Shown here: in pieces, positions 19,737 to 42,415 of the stretch | How positions within the stretch are numbered: the first letter of the stretch is position 1 | Layout of the letters: each line of letters opens with the position of its first letter | IMG/VR virus record: IMGVR_UViG_3300045988_044581 | Coordinates: 1-42,415 of that record | Direction: 5' to 3' (one strand) | Origin: a virus | Length of the DNA: 42,415 bases | Notes under the pieces: model-generated | What the model saw: only the letters and a program-made list of their open reading frames with translations | What the model was told of the DNA's origin: nothing | Database searches by the model: none | Program-made: the position numbers and the translations under genes

Positions 19737-19938
19737 CATTATCAGAAAGCTTACAAGCAGGAAATTTTGGGTAGCTATTGCGGCTATGCTTGGATCAATC
19801 GGGGCCAGTATCGCAGGCATCCAGACCGGCAGCGACGTGGTGGCCACAATTGGCGTTGTAGCGACCGTGGTATCTGCTGCGATGTATGCAGCACTTGAGG
19901 CGTATGTGGACGCTACCAGGATCAAGGAGGATAAGTGA
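19723..19938 (+). CDS. Putative holin (2 TM)
   Basis: 71 aa: MSRDDIIRKLTSRKFWVAIAAMLGSIGASIAGI...VVATVVSAAMYAAL. RBS AAGGAGGA. Overlaps the endolysin start. Confidence 0.65.
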   Translation: MSRDDIIRKLTSRKFWVAIAAMLGSIGASIAGIQTGSDVVATIGVVATVVSAAMYAALEAYVDATRIKEDK

Positions 19939-20675
19939 TGGTTGTATCCTCTGAGGGCCTTAATCTCATCAAAGAATTTGAGGGCTGCCAGCTCAAGGTG
20001 TACAGAGATCCGGTAGGAATCAAAACGGTGGGGTACGGACACACCGGAGCAGACGTGAATGCCATGCGTGTAGGCGCGAAGATCACGCAGGCCGAAGCTG
20101 ATGAGTATCTGCGCAAAGACACAGAGAAGGCGCAGGCCAACGTCAACTCCTTTAATGATAAGTATCACTGGACACAGACGCAGTTTGATGCGCTTGTGTC
20201 TTTTGCCTTTAATCTCGGATCTATCAATCAGCTCACGGCGAACGGGGCACGCAGCATCGCGCAGATTTCCGCAAAGATCCCTGCATATAACAAGGCGGGC
20301 GGGAAAGTTCTGCCGGGCCTTACCAGAAGAAGAAACGCAGAAAAGGCTCTCTTTGATCGCACCGCGCAGGCTGTAGAAAAGCCAAAGGAAGAGAAGAAGG
20401 AGCCAAAGACAGAAGGAAGGTACCGTGCAGGATGCACTTATACGACAACCGTCAATCTCTTTGTGCGGGACGCTGCAGCAGGGAGCATCAAGAAGTACAG
20501 TCAGCTCACACCAAACGGGAAGAAAAACGGATACTCGACAAACGGCAAAGCTGTCCTGAGAGCAGGAACCCGCGTCACGATCAGCAAGACGCAGGAAGTC
20601 GGCGGCGATATCTGGGCGCAGATTCCGTCTGGATGGATTTGTGCACAGAACAACGGGAAAGAGTACGTGAGATGA
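19938..20675 (+). CDS. Endolysin: GH24 lysozyme domain plus C-terminal SH3-like binding domain
   Basis: GH24 signature EGLNLIKEFEGCQLKVYRDPVGIKTVGYGHTG. The C-terminal GTRVTISKTQEVGGDIWAQIPSGWI segment is SH3b-like. Confidence 0.9.
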   Translation: MVVSSEGLNLIKEFEGCQLKVYRDPVGIKTVGYGHTGADVNAMRVGAKITQAEADEYLRKDTEKAQANVNSFNDKYHWTQTQFDALVSFAFNLGSINQLTANGARSIAQISAKIPAYNKAGGKVLPGLTRRRNAEKALFDRTAQAVEKPKEEKKEPKTEGRYRAGCTYTTTVNLFVRDAAAGSIKKYSQLTPNGKKNGYSTNGKAVLRAGTRVTISKTQEVGGDIWAQIPSGWICAQNNGKEYVR

Positions 20676-20794: not shown

Positions 20795-20976
20795 CCGCCC
20801 AAGACATGCTCCTTGCGGACGCTATCGGGACGGCAATCAATGCAGAGATGGAAGTAGAACGCCTGCAGAAAGAGAACGACAGGCTCAACAAATGGCACTA
20901 TAAAATGTGTTATCTGATCTGCATCGCAGGAATCATAACCAGCTTTATCGGGATTATAGGAGCACTGTATGGATAG
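20761..20976 (+). CDS. C-terminally membrane-anchored coiled-coil protein
   Basis: 71 aa. TM segment CYLICIAGIITSFIGIIGALYG. Confidence 0.55.
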   Translation: MQKMREDDRKITAQDMLLADAIGTAINAEMEVERLQKENDRLNKWHYKMCYLICIAGIITSFIGIIGALYG

Positions 20977-21241
20977 GTCACTGATCCGCGATTTCTGGCG
21001 CTGCGGTGACTGCCAGATCATAGACTTTGCGATTATTCGGGCGAGGCTGAACGCCAACGAAAAGGAAGTGGTTCGGCTTATGCTTGATGAGTGCCACACG
21101 CAGGAGAGTGCTGCGGAGAAAATGGATGTATCCACAAGGTGCCTGCAGTCGTGGTGGTACTCTGCTACGGATAAGCTCTTAAGCATCCCGTGGGTTACGG
21201 CATACGCGAAAGAAATCAGAAGTAAATCAGAGCGGGAGTAA
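20969..21241 (+). CDS. Sigma-70 region-4-like HTH protein
   Basis: ANEKEVVRLMLDECHTQESAAEKMDVSTRCLQSWWYSATDKL resembles a region-4 HTH. It is the last gene before the terminator. Confidence 0.5.
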   Translation: MDRSLIRDFWRCGDCQIIDFAIIRARLNANEKEVVRLMLDECHTQESAAEKMDVSTRCLQSWWYSATDKLLSIPWVTAYAKEIRSKSERE

Positions 21242-21309
21242 CCGGTATCTCGCGGGGCAGTGAGCGAGGGAAACCGCTGCACAACTGTATTGGTGGGGAT
21301 GCAGACAAG

Positions 21310-21335
21310 AGAGGCCTATAATGGGCCTCTTTTTT
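21310..21335 (+). terminator. Intrinsic terminator ending the late operon
   Basis: AGAGGCC-TATAATG-GGCCTCT hairpin followed by TTTTT. Confidence 0.75.
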
Positions 21336-21359
21336 GATGTAAATAATTGATATTAGTTA

Positions 21360-21388
21360 TTTACAAATAAATAAACGTATAGTATGAT
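21360..21388 (+). promoter_or_regulatory. Sigma-70-type promoter TTTACA-N17-TATGAT, with inverted repeat TTATTTACAAATAA over the -35
   Basis: Hexamers at 21360-21365 and 21383-21388 with an exact 17-nt spacer in an AT-rich context. Duplicated at 22324. Confidence 0.7.
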
Positions 21389-21434
21389 AAGAGCATCAAA
21401 AGAGATCGAAAAGATCACTTACAAGGAGGAAAAA

Positions 21435-21671
21435 ATGAAGGTAGCAAAAATCGGGAATCAGAATTTCGGATTAACGGGAAAGGTAAAAAACCTTTGCGAT
21501 ATTATGGAGGACGGACTCTTTGAAGTAGAAGGGTTCTTCCACCCTGTATCCGTTGAGCGCGTTACACAGTACGGAGAAGATGAGCTTTCCGGACAGGTCG
21601 GAGGGCTCTTCAATGGAGCGGACGGCGTTCGCCGTTATTATATGGAAACGGGGAAGTTTGAGGAGGTGTAA
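21435..21671 (+). CDS. Small acidic protein (78 aa), anti-CRISPR candidate by context
   Basis: RBS AAGGAGGA. Product MKVAKIGNQNFGLTGKVKNLCDIMEDGLFEVEGFF... First gene after the strong promoter. Start trimmed from the track. Confidence 0.6.
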   Translation: MKVAKIGNQNFGLTGKVKNLCDIMEDGLFEVEGFFHPVSVERVTQYGEDELSGQVGGLFNGADGVRRYYMETGKFEEV

Positions 21672-21672
21672 A

Positions 21673-22110
21673 ATGTATAAGGTAATTGACGGGAAGCGGT
21701 ACAATACGGACACGGCAGAGAGAATAGCCGTATACTCAGAGGGAGGCGGCCCGCGCGATTTCCGACACTGGTCGGAAGAGTTGTATAGAAAGAGAAACGG
21801 CGAATTCTTCATTTACGGGGAAGGAGGCCCGGCGAGCAAATACAGCGTTTCCTGCGGTCAGAATCAATGGAGCGGAGGAGAAAAAATCATTCCGATAGCG
21901 TACGAGCAGGCGCAAAAGTGGGCCGAGGATTATCTCTCCGGAGAAGAGTACGATGAGATCTTCGGAGAAATTGACGAGGACAACGAGCGACAGACGGTGA
22001 CATTTTCCCTTCCGTCAAGCGTCTGTGAAAAGCTCCTTCGGGAGGCGGCAAAGGCTGGCTTGTCGAAGTCAGAGCTTGTGTCAAAGCTCATCATGGGAAT
22101 TGACAACTGA
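21673..22110 (+). CDS. Protein with a C-terminal ribbon-helix-helix (CopG/Arc-like) domain, Aca-like candidate regulator
   Basis: RBS GAGGAGG. The C-terminus RQTVTFSLPSSVCEKLLREAAKAGLSKSELVSKLI fits a beta-alpha-alpha RHH. Start trimmed to ATG 21673. Confidence 0.6.
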   Translation: MYKVIDGKRYNTDTAERIAVYSEGGGPRDFRHWSEELYRKRNGEFFIYGEGGPASKYSVSCGQNQWSGGEKIIPIAYEQAQKWAEDYLSGEEYDEIFGEIDEDNERQTVTFSLPSSVCEKLLREAAKAGLSKSELVSKLIMGIDN

Positions 22111-22134
22111 TGAGTTTTGAAGCATTATATAGAC

Positions 22135-22262
22135 AACTTCCCCGCATCAGCGGGGGTGATCCTTATAGCCATAAGGGAAAACAAAATTTCCCTGCGTAAG
22201 CGGGGGTGATCCTTGTAGCCATGAAGGAAAACAAAACTTCCCTGCGTAAGCGGGGCATGAAA
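22135..22262 (+). CRISPR. Cas-less type I-E-like repeat triplet (28-nt repeats, 50-bp period, 22-nt near-identical pseudo-spacers); candidate RNA anti-CRISPR or mini-array
   Basis: Repeats are AACTTCCCCGCATCAGCGGGGGTGATCC (22135), AATTTCCCTGCGTAAGCGGGGGTGATCC (22185) and AACTTCCCTGCGTAAGCGGGGCATGAAA (22235). Each has a 6-bp GC hairpin. Confidence 0.7.
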
Positions 22263-22292
22263 GAGAGCCGGTTTTTCCGGTTCTCTTTTTTT
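22262..22292 (+). terminator. Intrinsic terminator
   Basis: AGAGAGCCGG-TTTTT-CCGGTTCTCT hairpin (one G:U pair) followed by TTTTTT. Confidence 0.8.
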
Positions 22293-22323
22293 ACATATTT
22301 TATTATTTATTTGATAATTGCTA

Positions 22324-22352
22324 TTTACAAATAAATAAATGTATAGTATGAT
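22324..22352 (+). promoter_or_regulatory. Second copy of the TTTACA-N17-TATGAT promoter
   Basis: Hexamers at 22324-22329 and 22347-22352. The surrounding ~90 bp are ~85% identical to 21345-21434. Confidence 0.7.
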
Positions 22353-22401
22353 AAGAACATCAAAAGAGAGCAGAAAGCTCACTTACAAGGAGGAAATCAA
22401 A

Positions 22402-23010
22402 ATGGAAGGAATCAGAGTTGAAAACGTAGGTGGCAAGGTTGAAATTTATACGCCTTATAACCGCGATTTCATCGACGCTTTGAAGGCGAAGGTCGGCGGC
22501 GAAAGATGGGACGCAGCTAAGAAGTGCTGGACAGCTCCAGAGGAAATGCTGGATGCAGTTCGCGCCATCCTAAAGGATGTATACGGCTATACAGACATCG
22601 AGGACGCCGGAAAGCTTTACACGGTGCGCCTGGAATCCCTTTACGCAAAGGCTGACCGTGCACCTGTATCAGCCTTCAACAAGGTCATTGCTAGAGCATG
22701 GGGACGCGATTCTGGGGCGGTTGTCGGCGATGACGTCATTTTTGTAGAAGGTTCTCCGAAGTCTGGCGGAAGCCGCAACAACTGGGAAACGATCATCCCA
22801 GAAGGATGTGTGATCGATGTACTCCACGTACCGGAGAAGGCACTGGAAAAATTTAAAGAAGAGCTTGCCGGAGAGACCTGCCCGGATTACAAGATTGTAT
22901 CCGAGACGGTAGAAGAAGAGAAGAAAGATGATCAGCGCGCGAAGCTCCTCGAAGAGCGTGAAAAACTCCTTGCAAGACTTGCAGAGATTAACAAGGAGTT
23001 GGGAGAATGA
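22402..23010 (+). CDS. Hypothetical protein upstream of the integrase, translationally coupled to it (possible recombination directionality factor or other accessory factor)
   Basis: RBS AAGGAGGA with ATG 22402, 202 aa. Stop overlaps the integrase ATG (ATGA). Confidence 0.6.
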   Translation: MEGIRVENVGGKVEIYTPYNRDFIDALKAKVGGERWDAAKKCWTAPEEMLDAVRAILKDVYGYTDIEDAGKLYTVRLESLYAKADRAPVSAFNKVIARAWGRDSGAVVGDDVIFVEGSPKSGGSRNNWETIIPEGCVIDVLHVPEKALEKFKEELAGETCPDYKIVSETVEEEKKDDQRAKLLEEREKLLARLAEINKELGE

Positions 23011-24326
23011 AGCGGGCAGCTTTATATGTCCGCGTAAGTACCGCTGAGCAGAGAGATCACGGGCTGTCAGTAGACAGCCAAATCTCTGCCCTGCAGAAAT
23101 ACTGCGAGGACAACGGATATAAGATAGCTGGCATCTATAATGACGCGGGAATCAGTGCCAGGAAGAGCTACAAGAACCGGCCGGCACTCCTGCAAATGCT
23201 GAAAGACTGCCAACAGAAACGCGTTGACATTTGTCTTTTCACGAAGCTAGACCGCTTCTTCCGGTCGGTCGCTGACTACTATGCTTGCGTGGAGCAGATG
23301 GCCGACGTTCCGTGGAGGGCAATCTGGGAGGACTACGAAACTGAAACTTCTGCAGGTGTTTTCAAAGTCAACATCATGCTTTCTGTTGCTCAGTCGGAAG
23401 CGGATCGGACTTCTGAGCGAATAAAATCCGTAATGGATTACAAGCGGGCACGCGGTGAGTACGTCGGTACGGTGCCGGTTGGATACAAAAGGCAAGGAAA
23501 GACCCTTGCGATTGACCCGGAGACAGAGGCAGGCGTTCGCGCTCTCTTAGAAGGATACCTGGATTATTTGCCGCTTGATGAGTGTGTGAAAAACGCAAAG
23601 GAAAAAGGCGTGACATTCCACCGGAGGACGGCGAATGACGTGCTGAAACGCCCCACCTACTACGGGGACGCATACGGCTGCAAAGTACCGGCGTACATCA
23701 CCAAAGAGCAGCACGATGCAATCATGCAGCGGATGAGCGAGAACATCCGCAAGCCAATCCGGACGGGCGTTACCTTTACGTTTCAGGGCATGTGCCGTTG
23801 CGGATACTGCGGGCGAAGAATGTCCAGCACATCCCGCCGCAGGCACTCAGGAAAGCGTGGTGACTACATACAGATTATCTATCAGTGTCCAAAGCACGTT
23901 AATGATTTCATACATCCCATCTGTAAAGGGTGCGGGATCAATGAGGAATTTTTGGAAGATGCGATTCTGAAAGAACTGGAATCTGCGGTATCTGAGTACA
24001 ATTACAGCTTGTCAAAATCCTCAATCACAACGGCCCTTGCCGACTATAATAGGGAAAAAAAGAAGATTGAAGACAAGAAGAAGCGCCTTGCTGAGCTTTA
24101 CGAAGATGACATGATTACCAAAGAAGAGTATCAGGAAAGACGGGATGCACTGCGCGACAAGGAAAGAGACCTGAAAGCTCCGGAAGCTGCAAGAAAGGTC
24201 ATCCTTCCTGCAGGGTGGAAGGAAACGTATTTTTTACTGGATAAAGAAAACCGCCGCCTCTTTTGGAGACGAACGGTCAAAGAAATTTTGGTCTATCAAG
24301 ATCACAAGGTTAAAATCGTTTTATAG
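23007..24326 (+). CDS. int: Large serine recombinase (integrase)
   Basis: N-terminal resolvase domain AALYVRVSTAEQRDHGLSVDSQ with the catalytic Ser. Cys-rich zinc ribbon CRCGYCG...CPKH. C-terminal coiled coil. Confidence 0.9.
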   Translation: MKRAALYVRVSTAEQRDHGLSVDSQISALQKYCEDNGYKIAGIYNDAGISARKSYKNRPALLQMLKDCQQKRVDICLFTKLDRFFRSVADYYACVEQMADVPWRAIWEDYETETSAGVFKVNIMLSVAQSEADRTSERIKSVMDYKRARGEYVGTVPVGYKRQGKTLAIDPETEAGVRALLEGYLDYLPLDECVKNAKEKGVTFHRRTANDVLKRPTYYGDAYGCKVPAYITKEQHDAIMQRMSENIRKPIRTGVTFTFQGMCRCGYCGRRMSSTSRRRHSGKRGDYIQIIYQCPKHVNDFIHPICKGCGINEEFLEDAILKELESAVSEYNYSLSKSSITTALADYNREKKKIEDKKKRLAELYEDDMITKEEYQERRDALRDKERDLKAPEAARKVILPAGWKETYFLLDKENRRLFWRRTVKEILVYQDHKVKIVL

Positions 24327-24397
24327 AGCGGCGCACGGGGGTTGAACCCGCATCCCGACCTTGGGAAGGTCATATTCTACCGCTGAACTAGCGCCGC
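24327..24397 (-). tRNA. tRNA-Gly (anticodon CCC)
   Basis: Manual fold: acceptor GCGGCGC/GCGCCGC, D-arm GTTC-AGCGGTA-GAAT, anticodon arm TGACC-TTCCCAA-GGTCG, 4-nt variable loop, T-arm GCGGG-TTCAACC-CCCGT. Confidence 0.85.
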
Positions 24398-27603: not shown

Positions 27604-28185
27604 TTAAAGTGCGGTGTAGCTCTCACTTTTCTGCTTGACTGCTTCCCTTGCTCTTGTAATCGCTCTCTCCAGTAACGTCACATCTGGCATCGCTTGCTGC
27701 CCTCCGATCAGCCGCCCGATTGAGAGCGCAAGGACAAAATTGGATCGGATCAGAGCTGCAACGCCGATCCGCATCAGAAGTGGGGTGTGAAGGTGAGCGC
27801 AGACCATATTGAGAACGGCAGCAGGAGAAGATCCGTGGTCTCCGTATGACACATAGAGGAGCTTTTTCTTGTATGAAATTGGGAGGTCGCTCATCATGGT
27901 CAGGAGTGCCTTTGTAATTTCTTCTTCATCGTCCTGCGTGTCTACGGTCTCCATTTCCACCGGATACAGCACGCGCAGATAGTACGGAAGCGGCTGAATA
28001 CCAAGCTTGTAAAAATAGATAAATCCCGCCTTCTGCGATGGCGAGCTCGTGCCGTTCTCCCAGTTTTCAATCGTCGCTCGGCTTACTCCCATAGCCTTGG
28101 CTGCCTGCACTTGGCTAAATCCTGCAGCCGCTCGTGCATCTTTCCACATCTTCCCAAATCGTTCTGACAGTTCCACTGTGTTCAT
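27604..28185 (-). CDS. XRE-family HTH regulator with a ~120-aa C-terminal domain
   Basis: HTH FSQVQAAKAMGVSRATIENWENG. Start trimmed to ATG 28185 (MNTVELSERF) with RBS GAGGTG. Confidence 0.75.
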   Translation of the reverse strand: MNTVELSERFGKMWKDARAAAGFSQVQAAKAMGVSRATIENWENGTSSPSQKAGFIYFYKLGIQPLPYYLRVLYPVEMETVDTQDDEEEITKALLTMMSDLPISYKKKLLYVSYGDHGSSPAAVLNMVCAHLHTPLLMRIGVAALIRSNFVLALSIGRLIGGQQAMPDVTLLERAITRAREAVKQKSESYTAL

Positions 28186-28236
28186 TTTTACACCTCGTAA
28201 TTTTGGTCCAAATCCTCCTGCATGTGTCAAAGAATA

Positions 28237-28593: not shown

Positions 28594-28980
28594 TCATTTC
28601 CCTTGCTCACGGACAAGGCTTTCAGCAAAATCTTTAACACATCTTAACTCGTCATCGGTCAGGCCTGCGATTGCCTTTATCAGCTTCGTCCGGAATCCGT
28701 CATCGTCGAGGTACATCTTCCCGACGATCTGAGCAATCTCATTTTCTCGCTCTGGGGATACTTGGGGCCGCCCGGCTACATGCATCTCGCCTTCGCCTGT
28801 CAGCAGCCATTTCTTATTAATGTGGAAACGGTCACAGATAAGATTGATAGTAGATCCTTTTGGGGTTCTGTATCCTCCTTCATAAAACTTGCAAGCCTGC
28901 TCTGATAATCCAAGCATTTTTGAAAACTCCGCTTGTGTAAGTCCTGCCTCCTTGCGGATTTCTTTGATCCTTTCCTTCAT
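28594..28980 (-). CDS. CI-like XRE-family repressor
   Basis: HTH LTQAEFSKMLGLSEQACKFYEGG. Divergent from the early operon, with operators in the shared intergenic region. Confidence 0.8.
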   Translation of the reverse strand: MKERIKEIRKEAGLTQAEFSKMLGLSEQACKFYEGGYRTPKGSTINLICDRFHINKKWLLTGEGEMHVAGRPQVSPERENEIAQIVGKMYLDDDGFRTKLIKAIAGLTDDELRCVKDFAESLVREQGK

Positions 28981-42291: not shown

Positions 42292-42415
42292 GGTCGCCGT
42301 GTAGTAAAGACTGTGCGGAGCGGTCGGCATCGTGCCACTGCTCCTGTACAGCTTATCAAGAGTATTACAAAGCCAATGCAGCCAAGCGAGAAGAAGTATC
42401 ACGGCAGAAGGCACG
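42288..42415 (+). CDS. 5' part of the junction-spanning Cys-rich ORF (continues at 1..192)
   Basis: ATG 42288 overlaps TGA 42289-42291. Confidence 0.6.
   Translation, partial: MRSPCSKDCAERSASCHCSCTAYQEYYKANAAKREEVSRQKA
42297..42415. repeat. Right copy of the 119-bp terminal direct repeat
   Basis: Identical to 1-119. Confidence 0.95.

Follow-up and report, generated by a model that had tools for sequence, protein, structure and literature searches.

Organization of the island

The 42,415-nt stretch of DNA analysed here (the window) is the IMG/VR virus record IMGVR_UViG_3300045988_044581, positions 1 to 42,415, the genome of a temperate phage, complete and circularly permuted, with a length of about 42.3 kb. 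We focused on the region 21307-23010, an accessory slot located between the lysis genes and the integrase gene (Table 1). In this slot, a promoter (P1) precedes two genes, orfA and orfB, of which orfA encodes a 78-aa protein and orfB encodes a 145-aa protein with a predicted domain of the ribbon-helix-helix (RHH) type at its C-terminus. The two genes are followed by three units that resemble the repeats of type I-E CRISPR (short palindromic repeats, clustered and regularly interspaced) and by a second copy of the promoter (P2), which lies in front of a gene for a 202-aa acidic protein. An earlier sequence-only reading of this DNA had proposed a near-consensus promoter followed by two tightly packed genes, and both elements were recovered in our analysis. 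The region is probably an accessory-gene island that regulates itself, in a temperate gut phage with a host among the Clostridia. Two related loci are referred to repeatedly below, L222, the closest relative (orfB 89% identical), and L006 (orfB 66% identical).

Table 1. Features of the accessory island and its surroundings in the window
Feature	Position	Strand	Remarks
Endolysin	19935-20675		
90-aa sigma-70 region-4-like helix-turn-helix (HTH) protein	20969-21241		Just upstream of the cassette
Terminator hairpin	21307-21333	+	Inverted repeat and T-run; ends the 90-aa HTH gene and marks the cassette start; same position in L006 and L222
Candidate distal operator GTAAATAATTG	21339-21349	+	~25 nt upstream from the proximal one; family-wide two-site pattern
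Promoter P1, TTTACA-N17-TATGAT	21360-21388	+	10/12 consensus positions; conserved in L006, L012/13 and L222
Candidate proximal operator CAAATAAATAAACG	21364-21377	+	In the -35/-10 spacer; 18-mer TATTTACAAATAAATAAA common to P1 and P2
5'UTR (untranslated region) hairpin AAG-A-GAUC-GAAAA-GAUC-A-CUU	21400-21420	+	Just ahead of the invariant ACTTACAAGGAGG leader and the ribosome-binding site
orfA, 78 aa	21435-21671	+	Swappable cargo, candidate anti-defence protein
orfB, 145 aa	21673-22110	+	Starts 1 nt past the orfA stop
Promoter P_R, TTGACA-N17-CATTAT	22100-22128	+	For the repeat RNA; within the 3' end of orfB
Three type I-E CRISPR-repeat-like units	22135-22255	+	50-nt period
Terminator of the P1 and P_R transcripts	22260-22295	+	Inverted repeat and T-run; conserved in relatives
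P2, second promoter/operator copy	22303-22352	+	-35 at 22324-22329; -10 at 22347-22352
Second 5'UTR hairpin	22364-22384	+	GAGC/GCUC inner stem
202-aa acidic protein, phrog_18108 (function unknown)	22402-23010	+	Predicted to be driven by P2; stop overlaps the integrase start
Large serine recombinase (integrase)	23007-24326	+	Pfam Resolvase 2.2e-29, Zn_ribbon_recom 2.9e-11
tRNA-Gly(CCC)	24326-24397	-	Abuts the serine recombinase stop codon, opposite strand
Repressor-like HTH genes	27604-28230 and 28594-28980	-	

The orfB family

The product of orfB consists of a beta-rich conserved N-terminal domain (residues 1-100) and a C-terminal RHH domain (residues ~105-145, encoded at 21985-22107). For the window protein the RHH domain stays below threshold (Pfam RHH_1, E=0.011, or 0.0015 for the tail alone; PDB, CopG, E=0.039), and among 44 members of the family RHH_1 is matched by 21 (best 7.5e-7), DUF6364 by 13 and CopG_antitoxin by six. 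The AlphaFold2 (AF2) model of orfB has a predicted local distance difference test score (pLDDT) of 84.5, with the RHH helices at residues 115-128 and 132-143, and shows a domain of eight strands and two helices. The RHH domain proposed by the sequence-only reading is thus sub-threshold in the single protein and solid across the family. A Foldseek search of PDB with the model returned nothing significant, the best match being the Borrelia Pur-alpha protein (E=0.29, TM-score 0.26/0.40), which we treated as a lead only, and the search of BFVD returned uncharacterised phage proteins only. Structure prediction, which had been suggested for both proteins, gave a confident model for orfB, no fold match to characterised proteins, and an unusable model for orfA.

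The family is unannotated and phage-borne, comprising 226 protein clusters and at least 402 loci in IMG/VR, and the phages that carry it seem to have Clostridia of the gut and rumen as hosts. Family-wide, overall identity is 42-66%; residues 1-100 contain 23 invariant and 13 nearly invariant positions, and the RHH tail is far more variable than this N-terminal domain. The gene is typically found after lysis genes or near integrases, and as a rule it is directly followed by an intrinsic terminator. In about 10 of 75 loci, and also in L222, it is the sole gene under its promoter. We regard orfB as the most interesting part of the analysis: its family is large and unannotated, fuses a new conserved domain to an RHH domain, and marks exchangeable cargo slots in phages.

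Some orfB loci, L010 (1658-3421, 7323-11832) and L223 (1-1573), lie near a diversity-generating retroelement (bAvd and RVT_1) and near Amidoligase_2, GGACT, DUF4942 and LPD15 genes. Surroundings of the latter kind are typical of phage counter-defence or polyvalent-protein neighbourhoods.

Promoters and candidate operators

From orfB operons, 75 non-identical promoters were aligned by anchoring at the -35 element. The family promoter is close to the consensus, TTGAC(A/T)-N16-18-TATAAT, and an A/T palindrome of about 10 bp begins at the last base of the -35 element. Its commonest form is TTTATATAAA, with the variants TTTAAATAAA, TTTGTACAAA, TTTGGCTAAA, and TTGCTAGCAA or TTTACATAAA, and a second copy of the palindrome is found about 25 nt upstream. 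The centres of the two copies change together, as in L064 (TTTAGCCAAA and TTTGGCTAAA) and in L086 and L091 (TTTGTACAAA twice). For 60 non-identical promoters with at least 10/12 consensus matches, the distal and proximal sites of the same locus agree, in their best match, on average at 8.1 of 10 positions, compared with 7.59 +/- 0.10 after permutation, and none of the 5000 permutations reached the observed value; 27 of the 60 loci agree at 9 or more positions. In addition, the operators correlate with the RHH domain: the beta-strand KKTVTFSLP accompanies TTTAAATAAA operators, and His-containing strands occur only with TTTG-centred operators (3/3 vs 0/54, Fisher p=0.0006, uncorrected for phylogeny). 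Taken together, this is good comparative evidence suggesting that orfB binds its own promoter, from which we infer DNA binding and repression by the protein.

In the window, the operator-promoter-leader stretch of P1 (104 nt) recurs at 22308-22411 with 84% identity, and the module is present in exactly two copies. The core 18-mer TATTTACAAATAAATAAA is identical at P1 and P2, and neither it (0.01 occurrences expected) nor the leader is found anywhere else in the genome. The proximal site of P1 falls into one class with the TTGACA-TTTAAATAAATG promoters found at other orfB operons. P2 carries a perfect 11-bp inverted repeat, TTATTTATTTG-N14-CAAATAAATAA, which surrounds the -35 element. In L006 both arms bear a compensating G/C (vs A/T) change, and this is the case at both promoters, giving the compensatory inverted repeat TT(A/G)TTTATTTG-N14-CAAATAAA(T/C)AA in the window and L006. 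The sequence-only reading had placed the operator at another inverted repeat, TTATTT-AC-AAATAA, which is indeed present at 21357-21370; however, the better-supported proximal site only partly overlaps it, and in the P1 of L222 the repeat is disrupted (CTATTTACATATAA). In a promoter rich in A/T, a 6-bp A/T palindrome taken alone is weak evidence for an operator. A scan of viral contigs with the promoter pattern retrieved only the same phage and chance A/T-rich matches.

Each of the two leaders can form a hairpin. The inner stem changes in a compensatory manner (GAUC/GAUC, GAGC/GCUC, GGGC/GCCC) in four of the six copies from the window, L006 and L222, with a z value of about -2, and the hairpin is weak or absent in the other two; covariation therefore lends it modest support. 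The P1 leader ends in AAGGAGG, 6 nt upstream of orfA.

Exchangeable cargo in the orfB operons

In 81 of 87 loci, an open reading frame (ORF) preceded by a Shine-Dalgarno sequence terminates shortly upstream of orfB, and these cargo ORFs (median 98 aa; isoelectric point (pI) below 5.5 in 63%) fall into 47 unrelated clusters. When representatives of 41 clusters were compared with Pfam and PHROG, few matched any family. The exchange is visible even among close relatives, since L222 has no cargo before orfB and L006 has a 62-aa acidic ORF in the place of orfA. The acr/aca-type (anti-CRISPR and anti-CRISPR-associated) layout put forward in the sequence-only reading holds family-wide, in our analysis as a strong sigma-70-type promoter with a candidate operator, variable small acidic cargo, a conserved terminal gene for a putative DNA-binding protein, and a terminator.

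P2 seems to serve a slot of the same kind. In the window, the integrase gene is translationally coupled to the gene for the 202-aa protein and is hence downstream of P2. In L222, P2 is followed by an unrelated 96-aa ORF (L222 3184-3474), which is terminated, and the integrase gene is no longer downstream of P2. Both P2 cargos, which are uncharacterised, recur directly upstream of orfB in unrelated phages (L015, L071 and the L019 cluster), with homologs of the 202-aa protein in L015 and L071. Because the cargo differs in L222 and the homologs of both cargos precede orfB elsewhere, P2 can be regarded as a probable second cargo slot under the same presumed control.

orfA and its relatives

The sequence-only reading described the product of orfA as an acidic protein with no recognisable motif, and this agrees with its pI of 4.70, its net charge of -5, and the lack of any match in Pfam, PHROGs, NCBIfam and PADLOC. 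A search of PDB found no credible relative and no anti-CRISPR protein (Acr), the best match being a chemotaxis receptor (E=0.0067). The family is rare: a word-indexed search found five clusters and a profile search 33, and a profile search across 1.84 billion representatives gave only 27 matches. The large multi-repeat matches (LTD or cadherin proteins) were rejected as compositional. A search of IMG/VR and JGI metagenomes with the close orfA alignment recovered the same phage only. A C-terminal motif, SGQVxGFFxGADGVxRYxMxTGxF, is conserved among the homologs, suggesting that orfA encodes a real protein.

The contexts of the homologs are informative about its behaviour. In four Hadza gut phage contigs (L002-L005), homologs that are about 60% identical to orfA lie 300-400 bp from I-E repeat units, which are located on the opposite strand and behind a different RHH gene of 64-67 aa. 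The flanks of orfA in these contigs share only orfA and the repeat/terminator segments with the island of the window; genes of the distant replication region are shared with the window too. This separate association with I-E repeat decoys adds guilt by association. Another homolog (79 aa, 58% identical) heads a three-gene operon (79 aa, 102 aa, and an HTH protein of 113 aa) beside a tyrosine integrase (L228 3001-3883), and orfA homologs are also found without orfB. From these contexts, and from those of the four more distant homologs considered below, orfA can be described as a mobile cargo gene of operons capped by a regulator, and its link with I-E decoys is partial, though not trivial. An anti-I-E role is our leading guess for its function, and a tentative one.

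The repeat RNA beside the cassette

Of the three units behind orfB, two are complete repeats of 28 nt and the last ends right after the stem. A pseudo-spacer of 22 nt comes after each complete repeat, and the two pseudo-spacers are nearly identical. The units match the genuine I-E repeat CTTTTCCCCGCATACGCGGGGGTGATCC, which has a 61-nt period in L001, and I-E arrays of this kind are carried by Faecalibacterium, Ruminococcus, Oscillospiraceae, Lachnospiraceae and others. Close relatives (L222, L227, the window and L006) have between two and four units, and in the lineage of the window the units always stand behind orfB, whether or not orfA is present. In the window, L006, L222 and L227, the -10 element of the predicted promoter P_R ends 11 nt upstream of the stem of the first repeat, and an analogous promoter is seen in L002 and L004. 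According to the sequence-only reading, the locus is joined to CRISPR-repeat-like RNA. The two do adjoin and have a common terminator; the repeat RNA, however, has its own promoter.

A DNA search of the phage collection returned only a CRISPR array in MT835722. This record (L001; MT835722.1, 'Bacteriophage sp.', unverified) carries a canonical I-E array of at least 27 repeats, and represents either bacterial contamination or a phage-borne array. Promoter-proximal I-E mini-arrays, composed of one full repeat with a spacer and a truncated repeat, were also observed in bacterial genomes (L159 at ~130-400, L110, L126, L130 and L144). In L159, a metagenome-assembled genome of Synergistaceae, a 60-aa RHH ORF ends 97 nt upstream of the mini-array and represents a third unrelated RHH type, hinting at a general association between RHH proteins and I-E mini-arrays.

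Genome setting

The assembly is complete and circular or circularly permuted, as indicated by a 119-bp terminal direct repeat (1-119 and 42297-42415). Portal, terminase, tail and single-stranded DNA-binding protein families are encoded in the window, and a Pfam scan of its 44 larger ORFs found no Cas families at E<=1e-5. Rfam searches, permissive on the locus and at the gathering threshold on the whole window, gave chance matches and one tRNA only, and no CRISPR-DR family. The region 20900-23100 contains nine promoter-like sites where 2.5 are expected. The gene for the 90-aa sigma-70 region-4-like HTH protein keeps its position in L006 and L222, and its product is an alternative candidate regulator. 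The tRNA-Gly(CCC) gene may be attP-associated or a phage-carried tRNA.

Proposed mechanism and alternative explanations

In view of the observed anatomy, family distribution, hypervariable cargo, operator covariation and association with repeat units, the best overall explanation is a self-regulated anti-defence cassette beside an I-E repeat decoy, for which we estimate a probability of roughly 0.55. According to this explanation, orfB would dimerise through its C-terminal RHH domain and bind, at both P1 and P2, to a pair of palindromic sites rich in A/T, of which the first lies in the -35/-10 spacer and the second about 25 nt upstream. Enough orfB would then cap transcription from the two near-consensus host-type promoters, as in Aca repressors. 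The genes between the promoter and orfB, together with the gene behind P2, would be exchangeable cargo (here orfA and the 202-aa acidic protein), and the cas-less repeat RNA transcribed from its own P_R would act as a Racr/Cracr-type decoy against type I-E CRISPR. The N-terminal domain of orfB probably has its own function as an effector or sensor, for which AcrIE10, AcrIIA1 and AcrIF24 provide precedents. The architecture and the presumed autoregulation are well supported on comparative evidence, and an anti-CRISPR function of the locus is plausible, with anti-defence activity and the timing of expression being inferred.

Several observations weigh against the cassette explanation. Most orfB loci lack CRISPR-like repeats, and hence there is no tie to CRISPR for the family at large. 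In addition, orfB is probably more than a regulator, and not a simple Aca, because it carries an additional N-terminal domain under strong conservation and is in some cases the lone gene of its operon. No known Acr was found among the 41 cargo representatives and orfA in Pfam, PHROGs and PDB, a set that included no dedicated Acr library, and these general libraries reveal no sequence or fold similarity of orfA or orfB to known Acr, Aca or annotated anti-defence families; a kinship of the two proteins with known acr/aca genes is not borne out there. The AF2 model of orfA, built from six sequences, has a pLDDT of 55 and was unusable for a fold search, and no repeat units were found within 3 kb of the four more distant orfA homologs. 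The distal site of P1 is degenerate in the window (7/11 vs the P2 arm), and the statistics for operator covariation and for the RHH correlation ignore shared ancestry. Because the repeat RNA has the conserved promoter P_R, its adjacency to the cassette does not amount to one obligatory transcript. Among 1459 sampled I-E spacers none matches the phage, nothing beyond 19 nt being matched, and the pseudo-spacers have no match of 15 nt or more in 120 I-E loci. Racr-type and Cracr-type action are indistinguishable, as no complementarity of the pseudo-spacers to a cas or creT promoter was found in the sampled loci. Finally, P2 feeds the integrase gene in this phage, which would suit a role in lysogeny control too.

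The alternative that survives best, which we consider possible and less probable than the cassette explanation, holds that the chief effector is orfB itself, as a bifunctional protein for anti-defence or host sensing with an RHH domain that only tunes its own dose, and that orfA is an unrelated passenger without a CRISPR role. AcrIE10 is a precedent for such a protein (PMC13530269), and the many invariant positions of the N-terminal domain beside a varying RHH domain would be explained well. Moreover, there would be no point in a regulator of nothing but itself where orfB stands alone under its promoter, and in the window lineage the I-E units follow orfB with or without orfA. On the other hand, the fold of orfB matches no characterised protein, its strong conservation is unusual for Acr proteins, and most of the family lacks a CRISPR-like element. 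Besides, the separate association of orfA with repeat units in L002-L005 argues that it is not a mere passenger.

The anti-I-E guess for orfA and the dual role of orfB can be combined into a wider reading, on which we would place rather little confidence. In it, orfB would represent a class of hub proteins that is large and undescribed, with members that combine an effector and an RHH domain and are carried by the phages of Clostridia from gut and rumen. Their N-terminal domain would bind a component of host defence or host state, coupling target sensing to de-repression of the cargo in an AcrIE10-like manner, and the operator-flanked slots would index dozens of anti-defence families (at least 47 in 87 loci), including orfA as a new I-E inhibitor that works with the repeat-decoy RNA.

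It is also conceivable, and in our opinion unlikely, that the island is a lysogeny or immunity module of the P22 immI type, in which orfB, as an Arc/Mnt-like RHH protein, would control antirepressor-like or establishment genes and the integrase. RHH repressors of the Arc/Mnt kind are classic in phage immI regions, and the island lies between the lysis and integration modules. We keep this explanation as a minor rival because P2, which bears the same candidate operator, drives a 202-aa gene coupled to the serine integrase in this phage. However, the P2 cargo of L222 is terminated ahead of the integrase gene, other orfB operons are not beside integrases, and cargo drawn from 47 unrelated families is unlike a fixed regulatory circuit; in addition, the phage has separate repressor-like HTH genes (Table 1). 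A type II toxin-antitoxin pair with an RHH antitoxin, to which the tight two-gene operon, the predicted autoregulation and weak RHH matches to BrnA (E=0.035) and CopG_antitoxin might point, is highly improbable and was rejected because there is no conserved cognate partner gene: the gene next to orfB is hypervariable or absent, orfA matches no toxin family in Pfam or PADLOC and has homologs without orfB, and the RHH domain is C-terminal and fused to a large conserved domain.

Under the cassette explanation, orfB can be described as a putative autorepressor that is possibly an effector or sensor too. Anti-CRISPR discovery has leaned on HTH-type Aca genes of Proteobacteria, and coverage of the phages of gut Firmicutes is poor. 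If orfB is Aca-like, the 402 or more viral loci would serve as bait in mining phages of gut and rumen Clostridia for anti-defence genes through guilt by association, and the recognisable operator would flag co-regulated operons. The locus would also be a natural case of protein and RNA inhibitors of one CRISPR type, which may act together. The N-terminal domain of orfB is a candidate new effector or sensor fold.

Comparison with known systems

RHH-type Aca proteins, bifunctional RHH-Acr proteins and the clustering of acr genes with Racr/Cracr elements had all been published by 2026. With the acr-aca operons of the Aca1/Aca2 type, the island shares a near-consensus promoter bearing a (candidate) operator, variable acidic genes in the first position, a gene for a (predicted) DNA-binding protein in the last, a terminator, a neighbouring second operon with the same operator, and a structured leader element. 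The combination of a conserved regulator with quickly exchanging upstream genes is found here as well (47 clusters in 81 loci, with swaps between relatives whose orfB is 89% or 66% identical), and the assignment of the terminal gene as DNA-binding comes from the RHH_1 matches in 21 of 44 family members, the window protein being sub-threshold. The operon of L228 headed by an orfA homolog is alike in layout, with a different regulator, the 113-aa HTH protein. In contrast to the Aca1/Aca2 type, the putative regulator here is an RHH rather than an HTH protein, it carries an extra conserved domain of 100 aa, and the hosts are probably gut Clostridia rather than Proteobacteria. Neither a demonstrated Acr nor a homolog of one was found as a co-transcribed gene among orfA and the 41 cargo representatives, for which general libraries only were used. 

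Closer in the type of regulator is Aca14, an RHH-type protein that represses two operons, and the leaders of acr-aca operons have recently been reported to carry RNA motifs (bioRxiv 10.64898/2026.07.27.740549), of which the hairpins of the P1 and P2 leaders are reminiscent. Like Aca14, orfB has an RHH domain in the aca position and A/T-rich inverted repeats at its promoter, and is predicted to repress its own and a neighbouring operon; the presumed control of P2 parallels this multi-operon reach of Aca proteins. Compared by description only, Aca14 (WP_005725436.1) differs in being a small RHH protein with a helical extension and a repeat that overlaps the -10 element, whereas orfB has a beta-rich N-terminal domain and its candidate sites lie in the -35/-10 spacer and upstream. 

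AcrIE10 of Klebsiella plasmids is a bifunctional RHH-Acr protein (PMC13530269; PDB 8JI9, 9M7T, 9UER), whose dimer of dimers binds an inverted repeat in the promoter, and AcrIF25 is another published example of such a protein. An RHH domain, an established autorepressor in AcrIE10 and a putative one in orfB, is joined to a second domain in one protein in both cases, and both have an I-E context. However, in AcrIE10 the RHH domain is N-terminal and the Acr domain is helical and binds Cas7, while in orfB the RHH domain is C-terminal and the N-terminal domain mostly beta, and AcrIE10 is absent from the seven PDB profile matches (E<=1) and from the 50 best Foldseek matches listed. As there is no known-Acr cargo, the features compared show no homology to AcrIE10, and Aca14 could be compared by description only, we do not assign the locus to any of these known systems.

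The repeat units have their counterpart in phages in which cas-less, promoter-proximal repeat mimics lie beside acr genes. It has been reported that the 1-kb surroundings of racr genes are enriched in acr genes (PMC10651486), and that I-E Cracr arrays have pseudo-spacers of 21-24 nt and co-encoded Acr proteins (bioRxiv 10.1101/2024.10.29.618823). The neighbouring proteins in the island, in contrast, are uncharacterised candidates. As in these systems, cas-less units matching CRISPR repeats stand directly behind a promoter in the window, and with the I-E Cracr arrays they share both the short pseudo-spacers and a degenerate last repeat.

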